A stretch of DNA of 31,276 nucleotides from a virus (taxonomy: Duplodnaviria; Heunggongvirae; Uroviricota; Caudoviricetes). The notes beneath the pieces are model-generated. The model worked only from the letters and a program-made list of their open reading frames with translations, did not search any database and had not been told where the DNA came from. Below, in pieces: positions 781 to 27,503 of this stretch; the first letter of the stretch is position 1, and every line of letters starts with the position of its first letter. The stretch covers positions 1 to 31,276 of the IMG/VR virus record IMGVR_UViG_2534682222_000020; one strand, written 5' to 3'. Made by a program: the position numbers and the translations under genes.

Positions 781-1935
781 CTATGATTCGGTTTCTGCAA
801 TCCATTCAGGTATTTTTGCTTCCAGTTCCAGCCGCGTTTTAAATCCACTGCTGTCAATAGTGTGGCTTGCCTTGGCAATTATCCAGTCCTGGCCGTCAAT
901 GACGTCTTTGAATTCCGTTACCGTTCCGTGCATCTCCGGATACAGATCCGCGCGCCCGTAAGCCAGGGTTAAAGTGAACTCAGCTGCTCCTCGCTGGAGT
1001 TGTTGCCATTTTGCAGCTGCTGCACGTTGTGCGGCCATCTCACTGCTGTACGTAGTGCGGAGTACAAAAACGTTACCATCTTCACCGGCAATATAGTCCC
1101 CTTCCCGGCTGCTGCTACGCGGCTTTTTGTCTGCGGTTTTCTTCCGTTTTTTAACAGTGACCTTTTTCTTTTTTCCGAAATCCATATCAAGCCAGTACGC
1201 CTGCACGCCAGTGTATGCGTCACGATCTGCAATCCGGAAAGAATGTCGATCTCCGCTGCTGCGCGTGATGGAAAACTCCGGTAACGCTCTGCCGTTTGCA
1301 CTGACGCCACCACCAGGCAGGATGAACAGCAGGTAACCATTTTTCACAGTTGCAATAGCGCCCAGCATTTCCGCCATGCGCGTCAGAAACGACATGTCAC
1401 TTTCTTGTGTCTGATCTGCATGGTCGATCTCGGCGGACATCAGTTGCTCTGAGATGAGAGGTTTTAACTTGTACCGGTGAGCTATAGCAGAGACGATGCG
1501 CTCAACTGTAACGTCATGCCACGACACCTCCCGTTTGACGTTAAACTCATCGCGGAAATCTGCACTTCTGGCCGTGATCTCGATACGGTCCGGCGGCCCT
1601 GAGTGCGCAATTTCATCCACGATGAAAATCCCTTTGTGAACCAGTTTTTCTCCCTGCCAGCCTATCGCTACTGACAATTCTGCACCACGCGGGGGTAACT
1701 CAATATCTCCCTGGCTATCATCAACAGTGATGGTCAGCTCATCAGCATTAAAGCCCCTGTTATCTGTTAATTCTAATGAGACCAGGTTCCCATCCAGCAT
1801 GATCAACGCCTTGCCGCCAAGCATGACGTTAAACGCAGGTACACGTGACAGGTCGCCCGGATAATTTTTGAATTTCTCAGCACCCGCATTCAGCAGGCTT
1901 TTTGCGCTCTCTATTGCGTCAGTTGTCAGTGCCAT
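781..1935 (-). CDS. D: Tail protein D (late control gene D)
   Basis: ORF 781..2016; likely start ATG 1933..1935 (MALTTDAIE) with GAGGAG RBS. Conserved blocks DNRGF, RSADFR, SWHD, HIDQTQESD..FLTR, SGFKT and a Lys-rich linker, as recalled for P2 gpD. Confidence 0.85.
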   Translation of the reverse strand: MALTTDAIESAKSLLNAGAEKFKNYPGDLSRVPAFNVMLGGKALIMLDGNLVSLELTDNRGFNADELTITVDDSQGDIELPPRGAELSVAIGWQGEKLVHKGIFIVDEIAHSGPPDRIEITARSADFRDEFNVKREVSWHDVTVERIVSAIAHRYKLKPLISEQLMSAEIDHADQTQESDMSFLTRMAEMLGAIATVKNGYLLFILPGGGVSANGRALPEFSITRSSGDRHSFRIADRDAYTGVQAYWLDMDFGKKKKVTVKKRKKTADKKPRSSSREGDYIAGEDGNVFVLRTTYSSEMAAQRAAAAKWQQLQRGAAEFTLTLAYGRADLYPEMHGTVTEFKDVIDGQDWIIAKASHTIDSSGFKTRLELEAKIPEWIAETES

Positions 1936-1993
1936 CGCTTTCTCCTCACGCAAATATTTCCATGCGCGCGCGATAGGACAAACAGCCTTTTGT

Positions 1994-2011
1994 TGTCGCC
2001 TTTCTGTGACA
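1994..2011. promoter_or_regulatory. Candidate Ogr-binding dyad (TGT-N12-ACA) between divergent D and FI
   Basis: Seen: tgtcgcctttctgtgaca. P2-type late promoters carry TGT-N12-ACA centred near -55. A GAATAT -10-like hexamer at 2046..2051 puts the dyad about -55 for FI; an AATATT-like hexamer on the minus strand near 1953..1958 puts it at a similar distance for D. Confidence 0.4.
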
Positions 2012-2086
2012 TCCATCGTGACGTGTCTGCCGCCCGGAATTCAGCGAATATCACCATGAACTCACTAAACATGATGGCGGTAGAGT

Positions 2087-3268
2087 ATGACCGACAACTT
2101 TTTCCACGGATCACGCACCAAAGAAAACACCGACCTTCTGGCCGCGATCAATGACATTGATTCAACGGTCATTGGTCTGGTCGCGGTGGCCGATGATGCC
2201 GATCCCCTCACCTTTCCACTTGATACACCAGTCCTGATCACTCGCGTGATTAGCGTGCTGGGTAAGGCAGGCAAGACAGGCTCACTGTATAAATCTCTCA
2301 AGGCTATTTCCGACCAGGTCAGCACGCGCGTCATTGTTGTTCGTGTCGCTGAGGCCAAAGAGGGTGAAGATGAAAAAACACAATCTCAGCTCATTATCGG
2401 TGGCACTCAGGCTGACGGAAGCTATACCGGTATGTTTGCCCTGCTGACCGCAGAGCAGAAAACGGGTTATCGCCCTCGAATCCTCGGCATTCCGATGTAT
2501 GACACGCAGGAAGTAACCGCACAGCTGCGCGTAATTGCGAAGCAACTGCGTGCGTTCTCTTACAGCTATTGTGATGGCTGCGAGACTATTGCCGAAGCGA
2601 AGACCTACCGCGAGCAGTTCGCCGAACGTGAAGGGATGTTAATTTGGCCTAACTTCATCGCCTACAACCCGCAGACCGGCGTTAATGAAGAATTCCCGGC
2701 TGTTGCCTATGCGCTTGGCCTGCGGGCACTGATTGATAATGAGCAGGGCTGGCACAAATCACTTTCTAACGTTGCGGTGAAAAACGTCCTGGGTATCTCT
2801 AAAGACGTGTTCTGGGCGTTACAGGCGGAGGACTCCGACGCTAATGAGCTGAACGCTAACGAGATTACCACGCTGATCAAACGCGATGGCTTCCGGTTCT
2901 GGGGTAACCGTACCACCGACACCGAAGAGTATATTTTCGAGGTGTTCACCCGGACGGCCCAAATTCTTGCGGACAGCATTGCGGAAGCACAATTCACCAC
3001 CGTGGATAAACCGCTTACCCCGGCTAACGTCAAAGACGTTGTAAGCGGGATCAATGCCAAGCTTCAGGCGCTGGTCACTGCTGGCAAGCTGATTGGTGCA
3101 GCGTGCTGGTTTGATATTGTCGACAACCCGACCACTGGTATTCGCCAGGGTAAAGTTGTTATTCGCTACAACTACAGTCCCGTACCACCGCTGGAAAACC
3201 TGACGCTGATCCAGACGTTTACCGATCAGTATTACGAACCAGCCTTTGCATCGCTGGGAGGTGCATAA
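2087..3268 (+). CDS. FI: Contractile tail sheath protein FI
   Basis: 393 aa; ATG at 2087; RALIDNEQGWHKSLSNV, TTLIKRDGFRFWGNRT, YNYSPVPPLENLTL closely match recalled P2 FI. Confidence 0.9.
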   Translation: MTDNFFHGSRTKENTDLLAAINDIDSTVIGLVAVADDADPLTFPLDTPVLITRVISVLGKAGKTGSLYKSLKAISDQVSTRVIVVRVAEAKEGEDEKTQSQLIIGGTQADGSYTGMFALLTAEQKTGYRPRILGIPMYDTQEVTAQLRVIAKQLRAFSYSYCDGCETIAEAKTYREQFAEREGMLIWPNFIAYNPQTGVNEEFPAVAYALGLRALIDNEQGWHKSLSNVAVKNVLGISKDVFWALQAEDSDANELNANEITTLIKRDGFRFWGNRTTDTEEYIFEVFTRTAQILADSIAEAQFTTVDKPLTPANVKDVVSGINAKLQALVTAGKLIGAACWFDIVDNPTTGIRQGKVVIRYNYSPVPPLENLTLIQTFTDQYYEPAFASLGGA

Positions 3269-3784
3269 ATGGCTATTCCTAAGAAACTCCGCCTGTTCAC
3301 GATGTTTGTCGATGGCGACAACTACATCGGGAAAATACCCAGCGTCACGCTCCCGAAAATCACCCGTAAAACGGAAGATTACCAGGGTGGCGGTATGCTT
3401 GGCTCTGCTGCTGTTGATCTCGGCCTTGATTCAGGTGCACTGGATGCATCAATGATTGTTGGTGGCATGGTCGAGGAGCTGATCCTGAAATGGGGTGGGG
3501 ATATTGACGAACTACGCACGCGCTTTGTCGGTGAGATCTACAGCGGCGGTACAAGCTCCCTGCTTGAGGTCGAGATGCGCGGACGTATTACCGAAGTCGA
3601 CCAGGGCGAAGCCAAGCAAGGTGATGACACCAATCATACTTATGCGCTCAAAAATACGTATTACAAGCTGTCCGTGGATGACAAACCTCTGCTGGAAATC
3701 GACCTGCTGAACTTCATCTACAAGCGCAACGGTAAGAGCCTCTACCCGGATCGCATTGCGTCCGCTCTGGGCCTCGGCCAGTAA
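3269..3784 (+). CDS. FII: Tail tube protein FII
   Basis: 171 aa directly after FI stop (TAA 3266..3268) with GGGAGGTG RBS; size and position as P2 FII. Confidence 0.85.
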   Translation: MAIPKKLRLFTMFVDGDNYIGKIPSVTLPKITRKTEDYQGGGMLGSAAVDLGLDSGALDASMIVGGMVEELILKWGGDIDELRTRFVGEIYSGGTSSLLEVEMRGRITEVDQGEAKQGDDTNHTYALKNTYYKLSVDDKPLLEIDLLNFIYKRNGKSLYPDRIASALGLGQ

Positions 3785-3805
3785 CCTTTTTTAACCACTA
3801 CAAAT

Positions 3806-3824
3806 GGCGGCCAGTCTGGCCGCC
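3806..3824 (+). other. Intercistronic stem-loop between FII and E
   Basis: Seen: GGCGGCCAG-t-CTGGCCGCC, perfect 9-bp inverted repeat; no downstream T-tract. Confidence 0.4.
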
Positions 3825-3837
3825 CGGAGAAAGAATA

Positions 3838-4137
3838 ATGTCAGTAACTCTCAGCCAACCCATTAAACGCGGCGATCAGGAAATCAAATCCGTCTCAATC
3901 ACCGACACAATCAAGCAGGCTGGCTCACTGCGCGGGCTGCGTCTGGTTGATGTTCTCAACTTCGATTATGACGCGGTATCAACTCTGCTGACTCGCGTAA
4001 CCACGCCCCAGCTGACAACTGCCGATATTTCCTCAATGGCGACCGGCGACTTTACGGCCCTGTGCGAAGAAATCACGCCTTTTTTGACGAAAGCGGCGCC
4101 GTCCGCACCGAGCGAGGCGGCAACGGCGAGCAAGTAA
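3838..4137 (+). CDS. E: Tail assembly chaperone E
   Basis: 99 aa; position after tube gene and before tape measure; contains the slippery heptamer near its 3' end. Confidence 0.8.
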   Translation: MSVTLSQPIKRGDQEIKSVSITDTIKQAGSLRGLRLVDVLNFDYDAVSTLLTRVTTPQLTTADISSMATGDFTALCEEITPFLTKAAPSAPSEAATASK

Positions 4138-4310
4138 GAGAGGCAGTATTCAGCGATGTCGACGATCTGATCGCCGATATCGCTGTGATATTTCACTGGC
4201 CGCCCTCCGAAATGCACAGCATGGAGTTGCGCGAGCTGATGGCCTGGCGCGAACGGGCGGCCATCAGAAGCGGCAACCATGATAAGGAGGATGACGACGA
4301 TGGATCTTAG
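3838..4310 (+). CDS. E': E+E' fusion chaperone made by programmed -1 ribosomal frameshift
   Basis: Slippery heptamer T TTT TTG at 4080..4086 in the E frame (cct ttt ttg); the -1 frame continues open as FFDESGAVRTERGG... to a stop at 4308..4310, overlapping the T start. Same arrangement as P2 E/E'. Confidence 0.7.
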
Positions 4311-7239
4311 TATTCGCGTTGCGTTCAGTGCAATTGACAAGCTCACCCGCCCGGTCAGCGCCGCCAGTAAAGCTATTGGCGGCCTTTCCGACTCCCTCAA
4401 AAAAACTCAGTCCTCCATCAAAGACCTGGAAAAAAGCGCAACATCATTTGATAAGTTACGCTCGCAAGCCAATGACACTGCGCAGAAGCTGAAAAGCACC
4501 CAGCGGGCATTTAACGGTCTAAACCAGAAGCAACGTGAAGGCGGCCAGCTTACTGAAGCCCAGACGGCACGGCTTGAGTCACTTCGCACCAGGCTTTCCC
4601 GGCTGACGGAAACCTACGGCAGGCAAACGACGCAGCTGCGCACAGCAGCGCAGGCTGTGCGCCAGCATGGCGTTAATCTCACCACCGGTAGCGGCGCCAT
4701 CCAGAGTGCCATCAGGCGTACGGAACAATACAACCAGGCACTTGAGCGCGAACGTCGTCAGCTGGCTGCTACCCAGAAAGCCCAGGCCAGATACGAACAG
4801 GCAAAAGAGACTGCGGGTAAACTTCGCGGTGCAGGCATGGGGATGATGCTTGGCACTGCTGCTGCGGGCTACGCTGGCGGATCATTCCTTGCGCCTGCGA
4901 TTGGTTTCGACGAGGAAATGTCACGCGTCCAGGCCTTAACCCGCCTTAATAAAGACTCTTCCCAGATGGGAGATCTGCGCGCGCAGGCTAAAAAACTCGG
5001 TGCAGAAACTGCATTCACCTCTCGCGATGCAGCCAGCGGGCAGGCGTTTCTTGCAATGGCTGGCTTTACTCCAGAGGCCATTCAGGCGGCATTGCCCGGC
5101 GTTCTGAATATGGCGCTGGCCGGTGGCATGGATCTTGGTGAAAGTGCCGATATCAGCTCCAACATTCTTTCGCAGTTCCGCCTTGATCCAAAGGAAATGG
5201 ATCGGGTCAGTGATGTTTTGACCGCAGCATTTACCCGTACTAACACCGATTTAATGAACATCGGTGAGGCGATGAAGTATGCAGGAACCGGGATGGCTGG
5301 TCTTGGCGTTGATGTTGAGCGCACAACCGCCATGATCGGTGTAATGGCCAACGTTGGCCTGCGGGGTAGTATTGCAGGTACTGGCCTACAAACCACCTTT
5401 TCACGTCTGGCCGCACCAACAGGCAAGGCTCAGGCAGCCCTGAAAGAATTGGGCGTTTCTGTTGCTGATGCCACCGGAAAAATGCGACCGGCCGAAGTGG
5501 TCTTGTCTGATATTTATAAATCTATCAAAAAGTACGGCGATACAGACCAGCTTTCATTCTTCAAAGATATCGCTGGCGAGGAGGCAGCAAAGTCATTTCA
5601 GGCGCTGGTTAGATCGGCTGGTAGCGGTGAGCTGCAAAAACTCCTTGCCGATTTGCGCGGCTCTCAGGGTGAAGCGCAGAAGGCAGCGAAGGTCATGGCT
5701 GACAACCTCAGCGGTGATCTGAAAAACCTGGACAGCGCATGGGAGGGTTTCCGCATTCAGATTGAGGAGACTGCCGACGGCCCTCTGCGCTCTCTCACTC
5801 AGGGGCTTAGCGATATGATCACCGCCGCCAGTACCTGGGTAAAAGAAAACCCCCGACTGACACAAACAATCATTCTGGTTGTCGGTGGGACACTTGCACT
5901 GGTGGCGGCAATTGGCGCTGCATCACTGGCGATGGGTATTCTTATTGGCCCCCTCGCCAAACTTCAGCTCGGCTTTTCACTGCTGACCGGTGGTCGCGGG
6001 CTACTCGGCACCATTGCAGCTTTTCGCACTCTCGGCACTGTCGCGGGCCCGGCCATGGCAAGTGTCAGAGGATGGTCCGTCGTACTGTCAGGAATCGCCC
6101 CTAACCTGGGAAGAATTTCAGCTATTCTCCCTGCGGTTCGCTCTGGTCTGCTTACTGCATTCCTGTCTCCTGGCGCACTTGTGGGATCGCTGACTAAAAA
6201 CATTGGCATGCTGCTGCTTCGCCTCACTGGCTTACCAGCAATCTGGGGCATGATCACCGGTGCGATATCTGTTCTTGGTGGGGCTTTATCTTTTTTACTC
6301 AGTCCAATAGGCCTGATTGGTGCCGCGTTTGTATCTGCGGGATTGCTAATCTGGCGATACTGGGAACCCATTAAGACATTTTTCCTCGGTATGTTTACCG
6401 GAGTTATGCAGGCGATCTCCCCTCTCAGGGATGCCTTTGCCACCTTTTCCCCCATCTTTGACATGATCAGCAATGGGGTGAAATCCGTCTGGCAGTGGTT
6501 TACAAACCTTTTGTCGCCAATGCAGACCAGCAAAGAGACGCTTGATAAATGCGCGAGCGCTGGCGTGATCTTCGGTAATGTGCTCGGCGGTGCGATTAAT
6601 CTCGTCCTGACCCCAGCCAGGATGCTACTTGATACTCTGGGCTGGATACTTGAAAAACTTGGTGTACTACCTGATGAAGCAGAGAGGGCGCGCAAGAAAA
6701 TTGAGGATGCGCAACGCACTGCCCTCCTTCAGGATAAGGTGGCTTTCCTTGCCGGTGATATGGCTAAAGTCGCCCCCAAAAAAGCAGAGTCGCCAGTTAC
6801 TACTGCTGCACCCGCTGCGGCCTCGCCGCTATCAGGAAATACCGGTACGCAACGACGCCTGCAAAGCATCGCAGACAATACAAAAGCAACCGCTGACAAC
6901 ACCAAGAAAGTCGGGCCGGGTGACATTATTTTCAAAAACCTGCCGCGCGCTCTGGCTTTACGTGGCGCATACCAGGAAGCGCGTGTTACACCGCAGTCAG
7001 TGCCGCGAGTGGCAACGCCCGCCGCTGGCGGCATTATTTCCGCGACAGCAGCCACTCAGGCACCGGTATCGGCCCCCGTTACCGCGCCCACCGGCAATGC
7101 TCCAGTGTTTAACATTACCTTTAACGATGTTGGTAAGCGCACGGATCAGGAGCTGGAAAGAATGGTACGCAATGTTGTGCGTGATGCGATGGCCAGTACC
7201 AACAGAAATAACCGTGGTTCTTTCCGCGACAGAGATTAG
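4300..7239 (+). CDS. T: Tail tape measure protein T
   Basis: ORF 4279..7239; preferred start ATG 4300 with AAGGAGG 9 nt upstream. About 980 aa, coiled-coil N-terminus, long hydrophobic Gly/Ala-rich middle, between E' and U. Confidence 0.85.
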   Translation: MDLSIRVAFSAIDKLTRPVSAASKAIGGLSDSLKKTQSSIKDLEKSATSFDKLRSQANDTAQKLKSTQRAFNGLNQKQREGGQLTEAQTARLESLRTRLSRLTETYGRQTTQLRTAAQAVRQHGVNLTTGSGAIQSAIRRTEQYNQALERERRQLAATQKAQARYEQAKETAGKLRGAGMGMMLGTAAAGYAGGSFLAPAIGFDEEMSRVQALTRLNKDSSQMGDLRAQAKKLGAETAFTSRDAASGQAFLAMAGFTPEAIQAALPGVLNMALAGGMDLGESADISSNILSQFRLDPKEMDRVSDVLTAAFTRTNTDLMNIGEAMKYAGTGMAGLGVDVERTTAMIGVMANVGLRGSIAGTGLQTTFSRLAAPTGKAQAALKELGVSVADATGKMRPAEVVLSDIYKSIKKYGDTDQLSFFKDIAGEEAAKSFQALVRSAGSGELQKLLADLRGSQGEAQKAAKVMADNLSGDLKNLDSAWEGFRIQIEETADGPLRSLTQGLSDMITAASTWVKENPRLTQTIILVVGGTLALVAAIGAASLAMGILIGPLAKLQLGFSLLTGGRGLLGTIAAFRTLGTVAGPAMASVRGWSVVLSGIAPNLGRISAILPAVRSGLLTAFLSPGALVGSLTKNIGMLLLRLTGLPAIWGMITGAISVLGGALSFLLSPIGLIGAAFVSAGLLIWRYWEPIKTFFLGMFTGVMQAISPLRDAFATFSPIFDMISNGVKSVWQWFTNLLSPMQTSKETLDKCASAGVIFGNVLGGAINLVLTPARMLLDTLGWILEKLGVLPDEAERARKKIEDAQRTALLQDKVAFLAGDMAKVAPKKAESPVTTAAPAAASPLSGNTGTQRRLQSIADNTKATADNTKKVGPGDIIFKNLPRALALRGAYQEARVTPQSVPRVATPAAGGIISATAATQAPVSAPVTAPTGNAPVFNITFNDVGKRTDQELERMVRNVVRDAMASTNRNNRGSFRDRD

Positions 7240-7248
7240 GTGACGATT

Positions 7249-7737
7249 ATGATGATGGTTTTTGGAATGTTCGTTTTTATGCTGCGCACCACGCCCTACC
7301 AGCAACTCCAGCACTCGCAGGAGTGGAGGCACGTTAAAAACGAGCGCGTTAACCAGTCAGCAGGCTGGCAGTACATCGGCACTGGTGATGACAACATAAC
7401 CCTTTCAGGTGTTCTTTACCCGGAGATCACGGGGGGAAACCTCTCGCTATCCGCCCTTGAAACTATCGGCTATGCGGGGCGCCCATGGCCGCTTATTGAT
7501 GGTACGGGACGTATTTATGGTATGTACGTTTTAACACGGCTGGAGCGAGGTAAATCCGAATTCGATCAATTTGGGAATCCCAAAAAAATTGAATTTACCC
7601 TCAGCCTGAGCCGTGTCGACGCGGATTACAGGGAGAAGCTGCAAAGCTCGACCGTCAGCGACGCCCTTGCCGGGTTAAAGACGAGTGCAAATAATGCGAT
7701 AAACCAGGTGAAAGACTCGCTCAACGGTCTGTTTTAG
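7249..7737 (+). CDS. U: Tail protein U
   Basis: ORF 7240..7737; ATG run at 7249 (MMMVFGMFVFML) with AGGTGA RBS; WRHVKNERVNQSAGWQY, ITLSGVLYPE, KIEFTLSL match recalled P2 gpU. Confidence 0.8.
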   Translation: MMMVFGMFVFMLRTTPYQQLQHSQEWRHVKNERVNQSAGWQYIGTGDDNITLSGVLYPEITGGNLSLSALETIGYAGRPWPLIDGTGRIYGMYVLTRLERGKSEFDQFGNPKKIEFTLSLSRVDADYREKLQSSTVSDALAGLKTSANNAINQVKDSLNGLF

Positions 7738-7744
7738 CAGTGGC

Positions 7745-8313
7745 TTAAACCCCTTCATGTTCCCTTCTTCTTGAAGGGAACTTCTTGTAAAGCGTCGATA
7801 TTCCGACATCAAAAATAATAGCCACCTGCTGCCGTTTTTCCCCTGCGGCGATCAGCCTTCCCGCCTGTTCCCATTGCTGCTTTGTCAGTTTTGGCCGCCT
7901 CCCGCCTATTCTTCCTTCTGCGCGGGCAGCCGCCAAACCGGCGCGGGTACGCTCAACGATCAATTCTCTCTCCATTTCTGCCAGCGCCCCCATGACGTGA
8001 AAGAAAAAGCGCCCATGGGTGTTGAGGTATCAATGCTGTCTGTCAGGCTGCGGAAGTTAACACCGCGATTGCGTAGCTCTTCGATCATTGTCACCAGGTG
8101 GCGCATGCTCCGCCCAAGACGATCAAGCTTCCAGACAACCAGCGTATCACCCTCCGATAAGGTCCGTAATAAACGCTTAAGCCCCGGCCTTTCCGCTTTA
8201 GTGCCGCTTATTTTGTCTTCAAATATTTGTTCACATCCTGCGCTTACCAGCGCATTTCTTTGCAGCGCAGTGTTCTGGTCATTTGTTGACACCCTTACAT
8301 AGCCGATCAGCAT
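7745..8313 (-). pseudogene. Hin/Gin/Pin-family serine DNA invertase, apparently frameshifted (1-nt deletion) or sequencing error
   Basis: N-terminal ORF 7960..8313 (MLIGYVRVSTNDQ..., active-site Ser) reads correctly to ...STPMG then goes out of frame; the adjacent frame reads GRFFFHVMGALAEMERELIVERT...GISTLYKKF (HTH domain) to a stop at 7745. The break maps to the C-run at 8012..8014. Confidence 0.6.
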
Positions 8314-8420
8314 AAAAATCCCCTTTTATTTAGATGTCATAGTCCCTCGCATTGTATCGAGCATCGTCATTTCTGGCTGTACTGCAGGTCTGGTACCGCA
8401 CCGTCAGAAGTAACCATGTC

Positions 8421-8446
8421 TTCCGGAAAACGTTGGTTTGGGAGAA
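8421..8446. repeat. Left inversion crossover site (gix/hix-like), invertase-proximal
   Basis: Seen: ttccggaaaacgttggtttgggagaa; 22/26 identical to the reverse complement of 10268..10293; AAACC...GGTTT architecture of Gin/Hin sites. Confidence 0.6.
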
Positions 8447-8767
8447 GCGGCGAAAAGGAATGTGGGGACTGGGGCGAATCAGATACCAGACATGTCAGCT
8501 TATTCATCAGGATCTGGCTGGCAAAAATTGCCTGATGGTTCAATTGAACAGTGGGGACGAATTAATTTCCCGACTAACGCCGCGGCGGTATCTACAAATG
8601 TGACTTTCCCCATTCCTTTTACGCAGGAGCCAGACGTAGTGATTGTATATGACGGCGGTTTTGGTGATGGGAATATGTGGGGCGCAACTAACTGGACGCG
8701 AACAGGATTTGTTGCGCATTGTAACTATGGATTTGAAGGTGGAGCTTTCTTTGCGAAAGGGCGTTAA
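8438..8767 (+). CDS. Promoterless alternative tail-fibre C-terminal domain (Sv'-like cassette)
   Basis: Open frame begins inside the left crossover site (...[15 protein letters not shown]...), has no ATG or RBS of its own, and is followed 2 nt later by a tail-fibre assembly gene; would fuse in frame to the H constant region after inversion. Confidence 0.55.
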
Positions 8768-8769
8768 TT

Positions 8770-9210
8770 ATGAAATATTTATATATTGATAATCTGGCGT
8801 ACCCTTACGCCCTACAGTCTGTTTACGCTGCAAAAGGGCAATGGCCAGAAGGAAAAGGCGTAGACATAGACGAAGCTATTTTCAGGGAATATTTCCATGA
8901 CACGCCGCCCGAAGGTAAGCGCAGAATTACCGCAGGCGACGGAATGCCAGCTTGGGCAGATGTTCCTCCACCAACACGTGAAGAACAAATTGCATCAGCC
9001 GAAACTAAAAAGCAGCAATTGATTAACCAGGCCAACGAATACATCAACAGTAAACAATGGCCAGGTAAAGCATCAATTGGTCGTCTGAAAGGTGAGGAAC
9101 TGGTGCAATATAATTTGTGGCTGGATTATCTGGACGCACTGGAACTGGTCGATACTTCCGGTGCGCCAGATATTGAATGGCCTACGCCTCCGGCAGTTCA
9201 GGCCAGATGA
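8770..9210 (+). CDS. Tail-fibre assembly protein, alternate copy (Tfa')
   Basis: 146 aa; ATG 8770 right after the cassette stop; C-terminal ...LVDTSGAPDIEWPTPP resembles the C-terminus of the minus-strand Tfa (...TDTSTAPDVIWPELP). Confidence 0.7.
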   Translation: MKYLYIDNLAYPYALQSVYAAKGQWPEGKGVDIDEAIFREYFHDTPPEGKRRITAGDGMPAWADVPPPTREEQIASAETKKQQLINQANEYINSKQWPGKASIGRLKGEELVQYNLWLDYLDALELVDTSGAPDIEWPTPPAVQAR

Positions 9211-9784
9211 CGTCCGGCGCTGTGCTGGTATCTGTTGCCGTCACCGCGTCAATGTAATCCAGCACAGCGTTAAGTCGGGTGTTTTCTGGCTGCGTCAGCT
9301 TCCGCCCGGCCTGTAATTTCAGTTGAATCAGACTGATGGAAGCCATTGCTGCATTAATCAGTGACTGGCGCTGTGCTTCTGCCGCGTCTAGTGCGGCGCT
9401 ATGCTGTGCCTCGGTATCCGTCACCCATTTCTCACCATCCCATTTATCGTATGGCGTTAATGGGGCGATAGTGGTTGTATTTTCAGGGTAATCACCCGGA
9501 ACTGTGATTTCTTTGGTATCTCCCGTTTCGGTACTATAGACAACTTCACCGCGATGGTCTGGCACATATTCCCATGAATTTAAATCTACAGAGCGACAGA
9601 TTGCATAACCAGCTTTATGTGTACCTGGTGCATCCAGACAGGAACATGCCGGGATACCGACGCCGACAGCGAGATATTCAGTTGATGTAGAAATATATTC
9701 CCGCGTTTCGCCATCATAGTTATGTACGATGATTTCCCCATCATTTAAAGCGTAACCGTCTTTTCCCAAAATAGCCTGTTCCAT
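9182..9784 (-). CDS. G: Tail-fibre assembly protein G (active-orientation copy)
   Basis: 200 aa immediately downstream of H (H stop 9785..9787, ATG 9782..9784); conserved Tfa C-terminal motif. Confidence 0.75.
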   Translation of the reverse strand: MEQAILGKDGYALNDGEIIVHNYDGETREYISTSTEYLAVGVGIPACSCLDAPGTHKAGYAICRSVDLNSWEYVPDHRGEVVYSTETGDTKEITVPGDYPENTTTIAPLTPYDKWDGEKWVTDTEAQHSAALDAAEAQRQSLINAAMASISLIQLKLQAGRKLTQPENTRLNAVLDYIDAVTATDTSTAPDVIWPELPEA

Positions 9785-10888
9785 TTATGCAGCCCTCACA
9801 ATGTAGTTAAATGCAATGTTTCGCGGGCTACCATCACCGGCGCCGGAACTGACATGATTGGTTCTATCCATTCGTTTACTGTCATTTGTTGTTCCACTCC
9901 CATCCTTCCACGAATACAATAACCCGCCATCGCCAATGCTCAACTGCACCGCAAATACGGATGAACCGGATGAATAAACATCTCCAGCCATGAGTGGGTT
10001 CCCTGTCCATCCATGCATTTCATGGTTATGTTCAAGGATAGATGCTGCCTGACTTGAAAGCAGCAGTCTCGCGGAATCAACACCTCGCCCATCATCCCAC
10101 CCGCGAATAAACTCACCGCGCAAATCCGGTAATTTTAACTTTGGGTAAGCCTTTGCCAGTTTTGGGTACTTTTCGGCAGAAAAAGGTGCACCGTTGCATT
10201 TCAGCCAGCCTGTTGGTGGTGTGGCTGAAGGCCACGGAACAGGCACACCAACGGGTAACGCTGAGCCTTCTCCCAAACCAAGGTTTTGGAGAACCTGATT
10301 TACCAGCCCAGCATCAACCATTTCTTTTAATGCATTAGCTATCAGTGGGTATTGCTTGTGCGGATTTGCAGCAGCTACGTGCTTTTTCATCACATCATCG
10401 GCGTATGCCTTAACTTCAATAACGGCATCATCAACATATTTACGGGTTGCCAGCACCACTGACGGATCGATTTTCAGCGTCACAGCCTCGGTGCTGCTGA
10501 CGATCAGGATCACGCGAATAACCTGCACGCGCCCGCTACCTTCCTGCAACTGCGGTTTATAAGTCTCTGCACAGTTGGCAACCGCAATCATATCGCCGTC
10601 TTTATCAAACAGGCCAATCTCACGGATCCACCATCCGCCCGCGTCTTCCGGTATAACCTGTTCCGCAATGATCTGATTGGTGTTTACCGGGTCAACAGTC
10701 AGCATGTTCAGCTGCGCGCGGCGCAGCTCATGCACGAGGGCGGTTTGGGCCGGATTGGGTGTCGGCAGCGCGCCGTTACCATCACCGACGGCCATTTGGG
10801 TGATCTCAACCTGCGCACCCAATGCCGTGGCGTTTGCCAGTTTTGCCGCCCCGATATTGGTTAACAGGGCAAAATATTTAGTCGCCAC
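9785..10888 (-). CDS. H: Tail fibre protein H (constant N-terminus plus variable C-terminus in the invertible segment)
   Basis: ORF 9785..10909; likely GTG start at 10886..10888 (VATKYF... aligning with recalled P2 H MSTKFK...) with GGAG RBS. IGAAKLANAT, QMAVGDGNG, GGWWIREIGL, YVDD match the P2 H N-terminus. Crossover site lies in-frame at 10268..10293. Confidence 0.8.
   Translation of the reverse strand: MATKYFALLTNIGAAKLANATALGAQVEITQMAVGDGNGALPTPNPAQTALVHELRRAQLNMLTVDPVNTNQIIAEQVIPEDAGGWWIREIGLFDKDGDMIAVANCAETYKPQLQEGSGRVQVIRVILIVSSTEAVTLKIDPSVVLATRKYVDDAVIEVKAYADDVMKKHVAAANPHKQYPLIANALKEMVDAGLVNQVLQNLGLGEGSALPVGVPVPWPSATPPTGWLKCNGAPFSAEKYPKLAKAYPKLKLPDLRGEFIRGWDDGRGVDSARLLLSSQAASILEHNHEMHGWTGNPLMAGDVYSSGSSVFAVQLSIGDGGLLYSWKDGSGTTNDSKRMDRTNHVSSGAGDGSPRNIAFNYIVRAA
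10268..10293. repeat. Right inversion crossover site inside the H coding sequence
   Basis: Seen: ttctcccaaaccaaggttttggagaa, internally near-palindromic; encodes VLQNLGLGE in H. Confidence 0.6.
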
Positions 10889-11492
10889 TTGCGATCTCCA
10901 CGGTATCAATTAAATGGACTGCCGCGCCGGTGTAGTCGCCACCGCCCACGGATATGGTTTCAGGAAAATAGGGGTAAACGGTCAACGTATCGCCGATATA
11001 ACACCCCGCTCCGGCTTCGATATACCCCTGCGTCTGAAGCGAAAGCGAAAGGCCGGTAAGGTGGCGGCTTCTGGGTTTCGCGTCATCAATCAGGCGTTCA
11101 AGCTCCTGATATGTTTCCTCGGTTATCCCTTCGTCCTGAATGCCAATTTCAAGCTTGAAAGTGCCGGGCTCCTCGCCGCTCTGCCACCACTCAATCACCC
11201 TCAGCAAATAGCCGAAAGGTTCAACAACGCGCCTCAACGCCGAAATCGTGCCTTTGTGGCGATGGACAAGCCACGAGGCTTTAATTACCTGCCTTTTGGT
11301 CTGTTCAGACCAGCGCTTATCCCAGCGATCAACAGACAACGCCCAGGCCAGATAGGGTAAAAACTCCACGGGGCATTCATCCGGATCCCAGAGCTTTCGA
11401 AGGTCGACAGGAATACCGCTGATCCGCGCCGTCGGTTTCTCCGCATTCCGCATGAAATTGCTGGCTGAAGGCGGCAGGAGGTTGTTATTCAT
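10878..11492 (-). CDS. I: Baseplate assembly protein I
   Basis: 204 aa; LWDPDECPVEFLPYLAWALSVDRWD, VVEPFGYL, RLIDDAKPRSRHL match recalled P2 gpI. Confidence 0.85.
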   Translation of the reverse strand: MNNNLLPPSASNFMRNAEKPTARISGIPVDLRKLWDPDECPVEFLPYLAWALSVDRWDKRWSEQTKRQVIKASWLVHRHKGTISALRRVVEPFGYLLRVIEWWQSGEEPGTFKLEIGIQDEGITEETYQELERLIDDAKPRSRHLTGLSLSLQTQGYIEAGAGCYIGDTLTVYPYFPETISVGGGDYTGAAVHLIDTVEIASGD

Positions 11493-21259: not shown

Positions 21260-22312
21260 TTGAGCAAACAAAGACCCACACGCGGCAGGAAGTATGCCAG
21301 GGAGCAGGCAGATCTCGCCGCCTCACTGAAAGCGTCACCGGAGCTGAACTCATTCACCTTCGACGGCCCATGGCCGGTGAGTGGTGCCAGCGACCTGCTT
21401 GATAACATGTATTGCGCAGACAACGGGCGATACTACGAAACCCCCATTGACTGGTATGGCCTCGCCCGTCAGTTTGGCTATGCAAGCTGGCACCAGTCGG
21501 CGCTTTATTTCAAGCGCAATGTCCTTGCCGGATGCTTTATCCCGCACAAACTTCTTTCCCGCCAGGTGTTCTCCGCCTTCGCGCTGGACTGGTTTGTCTT
21601 CGGGAATGGCTATCTTGAGATGCGAAAAAACCGGCTTGGTGGTTCCTTTGGCTTTCGTCACTCGCTGGCGAAATACACACGACGTGGTTCTGACCTGGAC
21701 ACTTACTGGTTTATTCAGGCCGGGCTACAGGATCACATGTTTTCAACGGGCTCGGTATGTCACGTTCTCAGCCCGGATATTCACCAGGAAATATACGGCA
21801 TGCCTGAGTATTTCGCTGGCCTGCTGTCTGCAAACCTGGCCCATTCTGCTGACAAGTTCAGAAAGCTCTACTACGACAACGGCTCGCACGCTGGCTGCAT
21901 CGTCTACGTTAACAGCGCGATGGCCGACCAGGAGAGCCTTGATAAGCTCAAAAAGACGCTGACGGATACCCGGCGGGGCGGTGCGTTTAAGAACATCCTT
22001 CTGCACGCACCTAACGGCGGCAAAGACTCCGTGCAAATACTGCCATTCAGCCAGATATCGGCTAAGGATGAGTTTGTGGGGGTGAAGTCTTCCACCCGCG
22101 ATGACATGCTGGCAGCGCACCGGGTGCCGCCGCAACTGATGGGAGCCATTCCGGAAGGGAACGGTTCATTCGGTGATATTGAGAAAGCGGCTCGCGTGTT
22201 CGCCGTCAACGAGCTGACACCCTGCATGGAAGCCATGAAGCATGTTAACGACTGGCTGGGTGAGGAGGTGATTCGCTTCAACCCTTACGCATTGCTTGAA
22301 CCCACGAAGTGA
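21260..22312 (+). CDS. Q: Portal protein Q
   Basis: 350 aa directly after P; start codon uncertain (TTG at 21260 in the ORF track). Confidence 0.75.
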   Translation: MSKQRPTRGRKYAREQADLAASLKASPELNSFTFDGPWPVSGASDLLDNMYCADNGRYYETPIDWYGLARQFGYASWHQSALYFKRNVLAGCFIPHKLLSRQVFSAFALDWFVFGNGYLEMRKNRLGGSFGFRHSLAKYTRRGSDLDTYWFIQAGLQDHMFSTGSVCHVLSPDIHQEIYGMPEYFAGLLSANLAHSADKFRKLYYDNGSHAGCIVYVNSAMADQESLDKLKKTLTDTRRGGAFKNILLHAPNGGKDSVQILPFSQISAKDEFVGVKSSTRDDMLAAHRVPPQLMGAIPEGNGSFGDIEKAARVFAVNELTPCMEAMKHVNDWLGEEVIRFNPYALLEPTK

Positions 22313-22545: not shown

Positions 22546-22565
22546 GCTTGCTCCCCCGCCTCGCC
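22546..22565. other. Candidate cos site (cohesive-end region)
   Basis: Reverse complement of gcttgctcccccgcctcgcc is ggcgaggcgggggagcaagc; first 12 nt match my recollection of the P2 cohesive end (GGCGAGGCGGGG...). Located just after Q, as in P2. Confidence 0.5.
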
Positions 22566-22703: not shown

Positions 22704-23402
22704 TTACACCTGATCAACCTCGCCGAGCGCCACCATAATCGCCAGGCGCTCAGCAGGCGGTAACGCTGCAAATTTTTCCTTCCAGCGCTGCGCCTTTCGC
22801 TTGATTCGATAGCGATCATTGTAATTTTTACCTGCAAAAGTATGCGAATAAGCGCGCCCCTCCTGGTAGTTCATCCAGATCTTCTCTGTCCTCACCCCGC
22901 CGCGCGTCATTGCCTGAAACTCTCGGGCGCGCCAGTCATGTAACATGCGGTCATAAAATCCTGACGGATAGCCCGATAAAATTACGCTGACGTTATCCGG
23001 GAGATCGCGTAAACGCGTCAGCAATCGTTCATGGTCTTTAACAGAATACTCGCACCGATAGCGCGCAGAGCTGCTTCGCGTTTCATGCAGATAAGGCGGA
23101 TCAGCGTAGATCAGCACCCGGCCAGCATAAGAATAATCAAAGCGCTCCAAAAACGTCACCGCGTCACCGACGTCAATAAACAGACTATCGCCCAGAGCAT
23201 CCAGAAATTCATGATTACTCTGGTTAAATGCCTCAATGGTCAGCGGATCAATATCAATCCCCCAACTGACTTTCGCCGGTGGCTTACGTAGCATGACAGC
23301 GCCACCGCCCAAGTGAGTTTCGATGTACGTGTCATGCGGTGGCATCTCGGCAATAATTTTTTGATAAACACCGCTCGCCGCTTTGCTTCCCAGATAGCTC
23401 AT
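22704..23402 (-). CDS. Orphan Dam-class (D12) N6-adenine DNA methyltransferase, short form, in cos-proximal cargo position
   Basis: ORF 22704..23438; preferred ATG 23400..23402 (MSYLGSKAA); motifs YLGSK, THLGGGAV (SAM binding), DPPY (catalytic). No adjacent restriction endonuclease candidate. Confidence 0.7.
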   Translation of the reverse strand: MSYLGSKAASGVYQKIIAEMPPHDTYIETHLGGGAVMLRKPPAKVSWGIDIDPLTIEAFNQSNHEFLDALGDSLFIDVGDAVTFLERFDYSYAGRVLIYADPPYLHETRSSSARYRCEYSVKDHERLLTRLRDLPDNVSVILSGYPSGFYDRMLHDWRAREFQAMTRGGVRTEKIWMNYQEGRAYSHTFAGKNYNDRYRIKRKAQRWKEKFAALPPAERLAIMVALGEVDQV

Positions 23403-23514
23403 AACTTTCTCGTTCCCAAAAAAACCAACCTGCAGCACCGCCTAAAATGACGTTGCTCGATAGAATGGCCAGAACCGTCAAAAGCGACCATGGCTGACCA
23501 TCTCACTCACTGCT

Positions 23515-26335: not shown

Positions 26336-26538
26336 CGGGTGGCGACCTCCCGAATCTCTTCGATTGAGTCAAGCAGCAGTCGACGGCGGGTATGTTCGGC
26401 AAAGTGACGTTTGCCGGTGTCTTTCCGGTAGCACTCTGTCTTGCCGACTACCCACATGGATTCCGTCTGGTGCAACTTCTTGCGCTGCGGGCCGTCTTTG
26501 GTAATAACGATGCCCGTATGAGTCTTTTTAATGGTCAT
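26332..26538 (-). CDS. Small hypothetical early protein (68 aa)
   Basis: ORF begins at the Dam stop and ends in the ATGA overlap with the next small ORF; basic; no recognised motif. Confidence 0.45.
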   Translation of the reverse strand: MTIKKTHTGIVITKDGPQRKKLHQTESMWVVGKTECYRKDTGKRHFAEHTRRRLLLDSIEEIREVATR

Positions 26539-27503
26539 CAGAAAGGCTCCTGCGTTTCACAGCCCTTGGCAGGGTCGAAGCCTAAAAACATCTCGCCGTA
26601 AGTCGCATTCCCCATTACCGGCCCACAATCCGGGCAGCAACCACCGCCAGCACGATCGCAGCCATCACACACGCGAAGAACGCCAATAACCTCGCCAGCC
26701 ATATCGCGGCTTTTGGCGCTCACAGAGCGGCGGACACTCAGGGAGTGAAGGTTGAAGGCGGAATAAATTTCGCGAGTTTCAGGCGTGTCGCTGTTTGAGA
26801 TGATCGAGCGGGTGGCGTACTGACGGTTAACAGCCACAAGAGCCGCTACCAGAGCGCGATGATCAACCAGGGTAAAGGGTTTGCCGTAAGCGGTGAAATT
26901 GGCGGTATCGCTCGCAGGAATATAGGGCGGGTCACAATAAATCACCGCGTCATGCGCGAGTTGCATAACGTCAGGGATAGATTGGCGGAAATCACTATGG
27001 ATAAAGACCGCTTTTGTGTCGCTGGCCTTTTCGGCGAATAAGCGCATTTCCGCTTCAGGAAAGTAAGGCTCGGCATACTTACCGAATGGAACGTTGAATT
27101 CGCCCTTCTGGTTAACGCGATACAGACCGTTATAGCCATGGCGATTCAGATACAGGAAATACGCGGCATAAAGCATTGCTGCGTCCGGATCAGAGTCAGC
27201 CTGGCGGGCCAGTGAATTGAACTCTGTGCGCCGTCTGTAGTATTCCTCCGCACTGTTTCCGCCTTTGAAAGCCCAGCGGCAGGCGGCAATAGCGTCTTCT
27301 TTGCGGCCGGTTAATTGTCGGAAAAAATTAATCAGTGCGATATTGCTGTCGCAGAGAACGTAGCGGCGGTAATCCGTGTTCATAAACACAGTTCCACTAC
27401 CCACAAACGGCTCAATCAGACAATCCGCTTTCGGCAAATGCTTAAGCAGCTGCGGCATAACGCGGGTTTTTCCTCCCGCCCATTTGATTGGCGATCTGAT
27501 CAT
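26538..27503 (-). CDS. dam: Dam-family DNA adenine methyltransferase with Cys-rich C-terminal extension
   Basis: 321 aa; PIKWAGGK, EPFVGSGTV, LYLNRHGYNGLYRVN, FNVPFG, YCDPPY align with recalled E. coli Dam along its length; about 45 extra C-terminal residues with CDGC...CCPDC; ATG 27501..27503 overlaps the upstream stop. Confidence 0.85.
   Translation of the reverse strand: MIRSPIKWAGGKTRVMPQLLKHLPKADCLIEPFVGSGTVFMNTDYRRYVLCDSNIALINFFRQLTGRKEDAIAACRWAFKGGNSAEEYYRRRTEFNSLARQADSDPDAAMLYAAYFLYLNRHGYNGLYRVNQKGEFNVPFGKYAEPYFPEAEMRLFAEKASDTKAVFIHSDFRQSIPDVMQLAHDAVIYCDPPYIPASDTANFTAYGKPFTLVDHRALVAALVAVNRQYATRSIISNSDTPETREIYSAFNLHSLSVRRSVSAKSRDMAGEVIGVLRVCDGCDRAGGGCCPDCGPVMGNATYGEMFLGFDPAKGCETQEPF

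Follow-up and report, generated by a model that had tools for sequence, protein, structure and literature searches.

The 31,276-nt stretch of viral DNA analysed here (IMG/VR record IMGVR_UViG_2534682222_000020; hereafter the window) is a P2-like prophage that harbours a single gene between its replication gene gpA and its cos site. This gene codes for a D12/Dam-class (PF02086) methyltransferase devoid of the usual DNA-recognition domain of Dam. It is no cassette of the tin/old type but has long been a conserved resident of the slot immediately following gpA, and it is preceded by a conserved regulatory leader; these three points go beyond the initial annotation of the locus. With moderate confidence, we favour the view, based on sequence features, that the product is an active, self-regulated orphan DNA methyltransferase generating N6-methyladenine (m6A), with a minimal Dam core and a target other than GATC, and that it is used for anti-restriction. 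The gene and its immediate surroundings are as follows.

22704..23402, minus strand: coding sequence of a minimal Dam-like N6-adenine methyltransferase, 232 aa, on profile, fold and motif evidence (motif X, YLGSK; motif I, HLGGGA; motif IV, DPPY; C-terminal basic two-helix extension, residues ~194-231)
22554..22565, minus strand: P2-type cos core, ~140 nt downstream of the methyltransferase stop codon
23515..26154, minus strand: gpA, rolling-circle replication initiator (phrog_91, 2.6e-258), the upstream, co-directional neighbour

The open reading frame (ORF) starts with an ATG at 23402. An alternative GTG at 23438 would give a 244-aa product, but 43 diverse homologues align from the ATG-encoded Met, and the ATG start is therefore preferred. 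The N-terminus of the protein reads MSYLGSKAASG, followed by THLGGGA and, further on, YADPPYL, which places YLGSK at residues 3-7, HLGGGA at 30-35 and DPPY at 101-104, in the X, I, IV order of the alpha group. The initial annotation had described a single 232-aa protein with YLGSK, FxGxG-like and DPPY motifs next to a cos-like site, and both parts of this description stand. The P2 cohesive-end core (first 12 nt, GGCGAGGCGGGG) occurs only once in the window, at 22554..22565 on the minus strand (no match expected by chance, and none obtained in the shuffles), and the methyltransferase is the sole ORF between it and gpA. The ATG is separated by 112 nt from gpA, which is the probable source of read-through transcription into the co-directional methyltransferase gene. 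The portal gene (21260..22312) lies on the other side, together with that of the large terminase.

Profile searches identified the protein as a methyltransferase. It matches PHROG 56 'DNA methyltransferase' at 5e-38, and PF02086 at 23.2 bits, a small margin over the gathering cut-off of 22, with residues 93-140 alone covered. PADLOC sees it solely as a methyltransferase component, its top match being a Type II methyltransferase model of 295 positions aligned in two pieces. A single-sequence search of PDB sequences gave chance matches only (cupins). A profile of the 43 homologues retrieved DpnM (1.7e-10) and Escherichia coli Dam (~2e-6), each again in two pieces. In the alignment with DpnM, residues 5-66 correspond to DpnM 19-78 and residues 64-160 to DpnM 168-265, such that DpnM residues 79-167, i.e. 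the ~90-residue DNA-recognition domain, are skipped.

The AlphaFold (AF2) model (pLDDT 93.6, pTM 0.87) is a plain seven-stranded class-I methyltransferase core with the fold of the Dam-type catalytic domain. Dam, DpnM and T4 Dam, all of them DNA enzymes, are its three best matches in structure and profile comparisons, and ~150 residues can be aligned to them. Two short helices (residues 53-62 and 64-73) stand where the recognition domain of Dam would be, and two additional helices (194-212 and 216-231) are found at the C-terminus. All the elements of Dam known to read GATC are missing, including the N-terminal lysine equivalent to K9 of EcoDam. Across the 43 homologues, G5, G32, D101, P102 and P103 are invariant, K7 and Y104 are conserved in at least 90%, and H23, R109, Y115, H124, S143-G144-Y145, T166, G169 and E173 are also conserved. 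The basic two-helix C-terminal extension is specific to the family, with the conserved signature RxRIKRKxxRW...LPxxER (R197, I200, K201, K203 and R206), and no Pfam domain was found in it. The profile, fold and motif evidence thus agrees with the initial annotation in assigning the protein to the Dam/D12 lineage and not to a non-methyltransferase family. Relative to alleles of related prophages, its dN/dS ranges from 0.07 to 0.21 (median 0.13, 92 unsaturated pairs), a sign of purifying selection and therefore of a functional protein.

The window codes for a second Dam (26538..27503), a full-length member of the Dam family (246 bits with TIGR00571 and 195.6 bits with PF02086). The two proteins are distinct, as had been proposed: BLASTP aligned them locally over a segment around DPPY only (11 identities out of 36, E = 0.002).

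The exact 232-aa protein is present in NCBI in 193 contigs of E. coli and other Enterobacteriaceae, as 'DNA adenine methylase' or 'hypothetical protein'. Routine annotation thus already covers the gene call; the subfamily is uncharacterised, and in its architecture and cassette the protein is a variant of the Dam family. Homologues with 70-80% identity, all annotated as DNA methyltransferases, occupy the same slot in at least three genera of Peduoviridae, namely Klebsiella phage 3LV2017 (Reginaelenavirus), Salmonella phages SEN4 and SEN5 (Senquatrovirus) and Salmonella phages SI7, SW3 and SW5 (Irrigatiovirus). In the record of 3LV2017 (NC_047817; locus L001, 6001-6697), the annotated coding sequence is only 576 nt long. 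Another piece of the protein match runs on to 6697, pointing to a frameshift, or else a sequencing error, close to the C-terminal extension in this record. Full-length relatives in the phage collection are limited to 21 Peduoviridae records, the remaining matches corresponding to the catalytic half. The subfamily comprises 5901 representatives of 50%-identity clusters at E <= 1e-3 (534 at 1e-30), most of them 220-250 aa long. We also considered AamA of Acinetobacter as a characterised relative; however, the paper offers no evidence that it belongs to the subfamily. By megablast (~85% DNA identity or more), the allele of the window is found in two of 5426 complete E. coli genomes. P2 itself and several of its relatives do not have the methyltransferase gene, which together with this rarity indicates that the gene is dispensable for the P2 life cycle.

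To place the gene in its genetic context, we scanned one genome per species with a 10-sequence alignment, which yielded 80 loci, and defined neighbours by ORF clustering (individual loci are designated with the prefix L). As the initial annotation had called for, occupants of the locus were thereby compared across related prophages. In ~30 P2-like prophages of Enterobacterales, Vibrio and Rheinheimera, the order is gpA, sometimes a small ORF, the methyltransferase gene, variable cargo and the portal gene. In loci L006-L038 this cargo mostly consists of toxin-antitoxin modules (HicAB, Fic/Doc with its antitoxin, ParE/RelE with a helix-turn-helix (HTH) protein, YafO) or of an Ogr/Delta zinc-finger activator; the corresponding slot is empty in the window.

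In P2 the order is A(+), orf91(+), tin(-), old(-) and cosR, and the tin-old transcript begins near cos, from a promoter of its own. The window gene is co-directional with gpA and therefore corresponds to the orf91 slot, whereas the tin/old slot of this prophage is empty. The earlier proposal that the gene sits where P2 carries tin and old holds for the gpA-cos interval, with this one nuance as to slot and orientation.

The methyltransferases do not co-diverge with the phage backbone, as their identities follow neither those of gpA (Spearman 0.29, p = 0.13) nor those of the portal protein. The nearest backbone, in Yokenella, has 94% identity for gpA and 100% for the portal protein, and just 73% for the methyltransferase. 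Among the phages that carry the gene, the gpA and portal types vary between 30 and 94% identity. This uncoupling indicates that alleles have been exchanged among backbones. The enterobacterial copies borne by P2-like phages group as a single clade in a neighbour-joining tree.

Across the ~80 loci, no nuclease family recurs beside the methyltransferase gene. The gene is accompanied only by its own cis module and by gpA, an IS66 transposase or genes of plasmid leading regions, according to the type of element. The adjacent cognate endonuclease gene that characterizes Type II restriction-modification (R-M) systems is thus missing. The absence of a restriction partner between gpA and cos, already remarked upon in the initial annotation, extends to the homologous loci, which disfavours its suggestion that the gene works together with a partner encoded at another location.

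Two units, each made of a hairpin and a hexamer, lie in the 112 nt that separate gpA from the ATG.

23466..23493, minus strand: leader module 1, inverted repeat CCATGGTCG-CTTT-TGACGGTTC directly followed by TGGCCA (23466-23471)
23430..23461, minus strand: leader module 2, ATCGAG (23456-23461), imperfect inverted repeat CAACGTCA-TTTT-AGGCGGTG and CTGCAG (23430-23435)
23403..23429, minus strand: T-rich stretch and weak Shine-Dalgarno sequence GAGAAAG, from the last module to the ATG, as read from the sequence

We counted hexamers over the 250 nt that precede the gene at 32 P2-type loci. TGGCCA was found 27 times (1.2 expected), CTGCAG 26 times (1.07 expected) and GGTACC 25 times (0.83 expected), representing 20- to 30-fold enrichments, whereas TGGCCA and CTGCAG are avoided elsewhere in P2-type phages (observed/expected 0.27 and 0.41, respectively). 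Each P2-type locus has two to six units in a recurring order, and this also holds for the prophages of Vibrio and Rheinheimera, despite an enzyme identity of only ~50%. In 22 distinct TGGCCA units, the 9-bp repeats pair in 83% of cells, compared with 24-54% in slid registers; five of the nine repeat pairs have changed on both sides, and the observed covariation score was reached by 6 of 500 shuffles. On the sense strand of the repeat units, G.T mismatches outnumber A.C mismatches (36 vs 13). A stable RNA or DNA structure in the window leader is unsupported (RNA fold z-score -0.47), and Rfam searches returned nothing at gathering score in four loci and nothing at E <= 1 in the window region. 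No such array follows gpA in P2-like phages without the methyltransferase; therefore, the array belongs to the cassette.

In 30 of the 46 non-P2 loci (24 distinct sequences, including the IS66 copies described below), a near-consensus sigma-70 promoter, TTGACA-N17-TATGCT/TATTCT, is present at about -63 from the ATG. Its spacer begins with CATAG and its -10 box lies within CTATG, forming an inverted repeat between the -35 and -10 boxes. This promoter with its embedded repeat is absent from the sphingomonad loci. To judge from their sequences, the P2 units may be degenerate, reiterated versions of the non-P2 module, with ATCGAG in place of the -35 box, GTGCTG in place of the -10 box and a shorter spacer.

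Two variations on the leader were observed. It has grown to five or six units with a period of ~36-40 nt in L008 (~5800-6000), L010, L013, L024 and L027, where GGTACC and TGGCCA alternate and some arrays contain near-exact unit duplications. In L015 (5651-6001) and, at the same position, L023 (cluster c44), the hairpin array is replaced by a 116-aa ORF with a C-terminal ClpX-type C4 zinc finger, whose stop codon overlaps the methyltransferase ATG (TAATG), an arrangement that resembles com-mom and comHia-hia5.

The gene is also carried by two other types of mobile elements. In ~25 loci from metagenome-assembled genomes, a 223-aa homologue (~55% identity) is encoded directly upstream of, and on the same strand as, an IS66-family transposase (PF03050, 9e-35; 511-590 aa). 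One gammaproteobacterial genome has five copies of this ~2.47-kb unit with 96-99.8% identity. The unit is bounded by terminal inverted repeats GTGAGCTTAAACTG and flanked by 8-bp target-site duplications (AAAGTTTC in L057, AATTTAAC in L058). It contains only the methyltransferase and transposase genes, with neither tnpA nor tnpB, and it is a bona fide multicopy insertion sequence (IS). Literature searches yielded no description of an IS66 element with a methyltransferase. The unit was found at the following loci.

L056, L057 and L058, ~5733-8221: IS66 unit
L052, L077, L037, L040, L042, L044-L051, L054, L055: IS66 unit, further loci
L059, L061, L072, L074, L078, L081, L083, L085: IS66 unit, further loci

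On plasmids and contigs of sphingomonads (L064-L076), a 261-aa homologue follows a zeta-toxin-like gene. The adjacent block codes for an HTH regulator, an ArdC-N/metallopeptidase/Toprim fusion (1062-1119 aa), a SprT-like protein and topoisomerase III. This neighbourhood is of the anti-restriction and leading-region type. The block is near-identical across ten species, which suggests that it represents one widely spread plasmid region.

These observations can be combined into a working model for the orphan, self-regulated m6A methyltransferase that we favour. The enzyme would grip DNA through the conserved TRGG hairpin, the loop that follows DPPY and the basic C-terminal helices. The target would therefore not be GATC, and it may be short or relaxed. 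In the prophage, the gene is assumed to be transcribed by read-through from the early gpA operon. Replicating phage DNA would be methylated before packaging and thus survive restriction in the next host, a role for which the ArdC-type neighbourhood of the sphingomonad homologues also speaks. The upstream inverted repeats are putative operators through which the enzyme might limit its own synthesis, by binding or by methylation, as no protein other than the methyltransferase is shared by all module-bearing element types. The tandem copies in the phage could also damp read-through from gpA.

Several points weigh against this model. The PF02086 score of the protein is marginal, and the cut-off of the Dam-family model TIGR00571 is missed by far (33.5 bits vs 114.85). 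The single hairpins are weak (-3 to -5 kcal/mol), with z-scores of -0.3 to -1.9 that are not significant, and the two modules of the window make poor sigma-70 promoters, such that their function in this prophage is uncertain. The minus strand yielded neither a sigma-70 promoter nor an intrinsic terminator in the interval from gpA to the methyltransferase gene, and read-through is thus an assumption. The proposed anti-restriction role is a case of guilt by association, and literature searches turned up no experimentally characterised member of the subfamily.

A more ambitious version of the model, which we regard as speculative, is that of a large 'mini-Dam' clade, with the window protein as its founding example, whose members would have lost the recognition domain and would methylate adenines with little or no specificity. 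They would be self-throttled via the promoter operator, and the ~0.8-kb cassette would have been captured independently by P2-like phages, IS66-family IS and conjugative plasmids as a portable, broad-spectrum anti-restriction device.

Among the alternatives, the best supported, although still unlikely, is that of an adenine methyltransferase with no or nearly no sequence specificity, akin to Hia5/Hin1523 or M.EcoGII, that would provide Mom-like broad anti-restriction under tight autoregulation, with expression in the lytic phase. The loss of the GATC-reading elements of Dam, both the recognition domain and the equivalent of EcoDam K9, fits this scenario, as does an elaborate control region in front of a potentially toxic enzyme. 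The Hia5-type enzymes, too, are related to Dam, phage-borne and under the control of a com-like zinc-finger gene (PMC3299994), and a zinc-finger ORF is translationally coupled (TAATG) to the homologous methyltransferase in L015 and L023. However, Hia5 and Hin1523, the non-specific Dam relatives of Mu-like prophages, are 281-aa proteins with a divergent ~90-residue recognition region (PMC3299994). The 232-aa protein does not have the Hia5-type architecture of ~280 aa with a divergent recognition region and an upstream com-like gene. Its conserved basic C-terminal helices and TRGG loop could confer real specificity, and one would not expect a genome-wide hypermethylase behind the constitutive-looking sigma-70 promoter of the multicopy IS version.

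Somewhat less probable is an epigenetic regulator that would time lysis-lysogeny, replication or cos cleavage, or control host genes of the lysogen, with no protection from restriction. Such a role would suit a gene that always adjoins gpA, near cos, and the conserved inverted repeat in its own promoter could serve as a methylation-sensitive switch. Dam controls the transposition of IS10 and IS50, which the IS66-borne copy brings to mind. Yet the gpA and portal types found with the gene vary widely (30-94%) and methyltransferase identity does not track that of gpA, and a gene missing from P2 and many relatives is dispensable for the P2 life cycle.

We consider it very improbable that the protein supplies the modification for a defence system (R-M, BREX-like or methylation-dependent) with an effector encoded at another site, or that it acts by itself as a hotspot defence gene. 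The cos-proximal interval between gpA and gpQ is indeed a hotspot of anti-phage systems (Rousset et al. 2022, PMC9122126), for which 'MethyltransfD12 + AAA_15/AAA_21' arrangements, by domain label, have been tabled in E. coli P2 hotspots (PMC9122126), and the best PADLOC matches of the protein are Type II methyltransferase models. Nevertheless, neither a nuclease nor an ATPase gene is adjacent in the window or in the ~30 P2-type loci, which harbour toxin-antitoxin or Ogr genes instead; the IS66 unit contains the methyltransferase and transposase genes only, and the gene shares the orientation of gpA, to which tin and old are antisense. Finally, a role other than on DNA in vivo, as an RNA methyltransferase or a DNA-binding regulator retaining the methyltransferase fold, has the cautionary precedent of a 'DNA adenine methyltransferase' from a Stx phage, for which activity on 16S rRNA, together with a partner subunit, has been reported (bioRxiv 10.1101/2023.09.20.558713). 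This reading is hardly credible here, as the top three matches by structure and profile are DNA Dams, the homologous loci share no conserved partner subunit, and the invariant DPPY and S-adenosylmethionine (SAM) motifs argue for catalysis.

Should the favoured model of an anti-restriction m6A methyltransferase hold, the enzyme could explain how P2-like phages move among Klebsiella, Enterobacter, Citrobacter and Salmonella despite restriction barriers. Hia5 and EcoGII are presently used for m6A footprinting, and an enzyme of just 232 aa could also be useful there if its target is new or relaxed. The promoter with its embedded operator and the IS carrying its own methyltransferase offer small models of epigenetic cargo that regulates itself. 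The domain that gives Dam its specificity is missing throughout this large subfamily.

Other features of the window were noted. The second Dam ends with a Cys-rich tail of ~45 residues (residues ~277-319, CDGCDRAGGGCCPDCG...) that matches a segment of exonuclease VIII/RecE models (NF007259 positions 526-555; phrog_20376 and phrog_2082). The region 7960-10909 resembles an invertible tail-fibre segment, with hix/gix-like 21-nt inverted repeats (95% complementary) at 8427-8447 and 10267-10287. A 117-aa ORF for a resolvase/invertase N-terminal domain, possibly truncated, lies at 7960-8313 (minus strand), and alternative genes for a tail-fibre C-terminus and its chaperone face each other at 8438-9210 (plus strand) and 9182-10909 (minus strand). 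Within 781-7737, the block coding for the sheath, tube, tape-measure and gpU proteins (2087-7737) is on the plus strand and is therefore inverted relative to the P2 gene order, whereas gpD (781-2016) and the tail-fibre and baseplate genes of the window are on the minus strand.

Four known systems come closest to that of the window. The window protein has in common with Dam, DpnM and T4 Dam the catalytic fold and the order of the N-terminal GxK, FxGxG and DPPY motifs. In contrast, it is devoid of their ~90-residue GATC-reading domain (a helical bundle with a beta-hairpin) and harbours an additional ~40-residue basic two-helix C-terminal extension, for a length of 232 aa compared with 259-284 aa for the solved Dam-type enzymes. 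Similarly to Hia5, Hin1523 and Nma1821, it is Dam-related, prophage-borne, without a nuclease partner and of proposed anti-restriction function. It differs from them by the architecture described above and by its host element, which is P2-like rather than Mu-like. A coupled zinc-finger ORF reminiscent of com-hia5 is found in some homologous loci but not in the window.

The self-regulators of the M.SsoII/M.EcoRII type, which are C5-cytosine methyltransferases and have an N-terminal helix-turn-helix, bind an inverted repeat located in the promoter of their own gene. The present system shares with them a promoter-embedded inverted repeat and the lack of a separate linked regulator gene, and its phage versions reiterate the repeat two to six times. 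Finally, the gene occupies the same gpA-cos interval as P2 tin/old and the hotspot cargo, an interval in which related prophages hold variable cargo. However, tin and old are prophage-expressed exclusion genes antisense to gpA, whereas the window gene is in the sense orientation, in the orf91 slot. Unlike the hotspot cargo, it has no predicted anti-phage effector and is conserved as one clade across many P2-like lineages.

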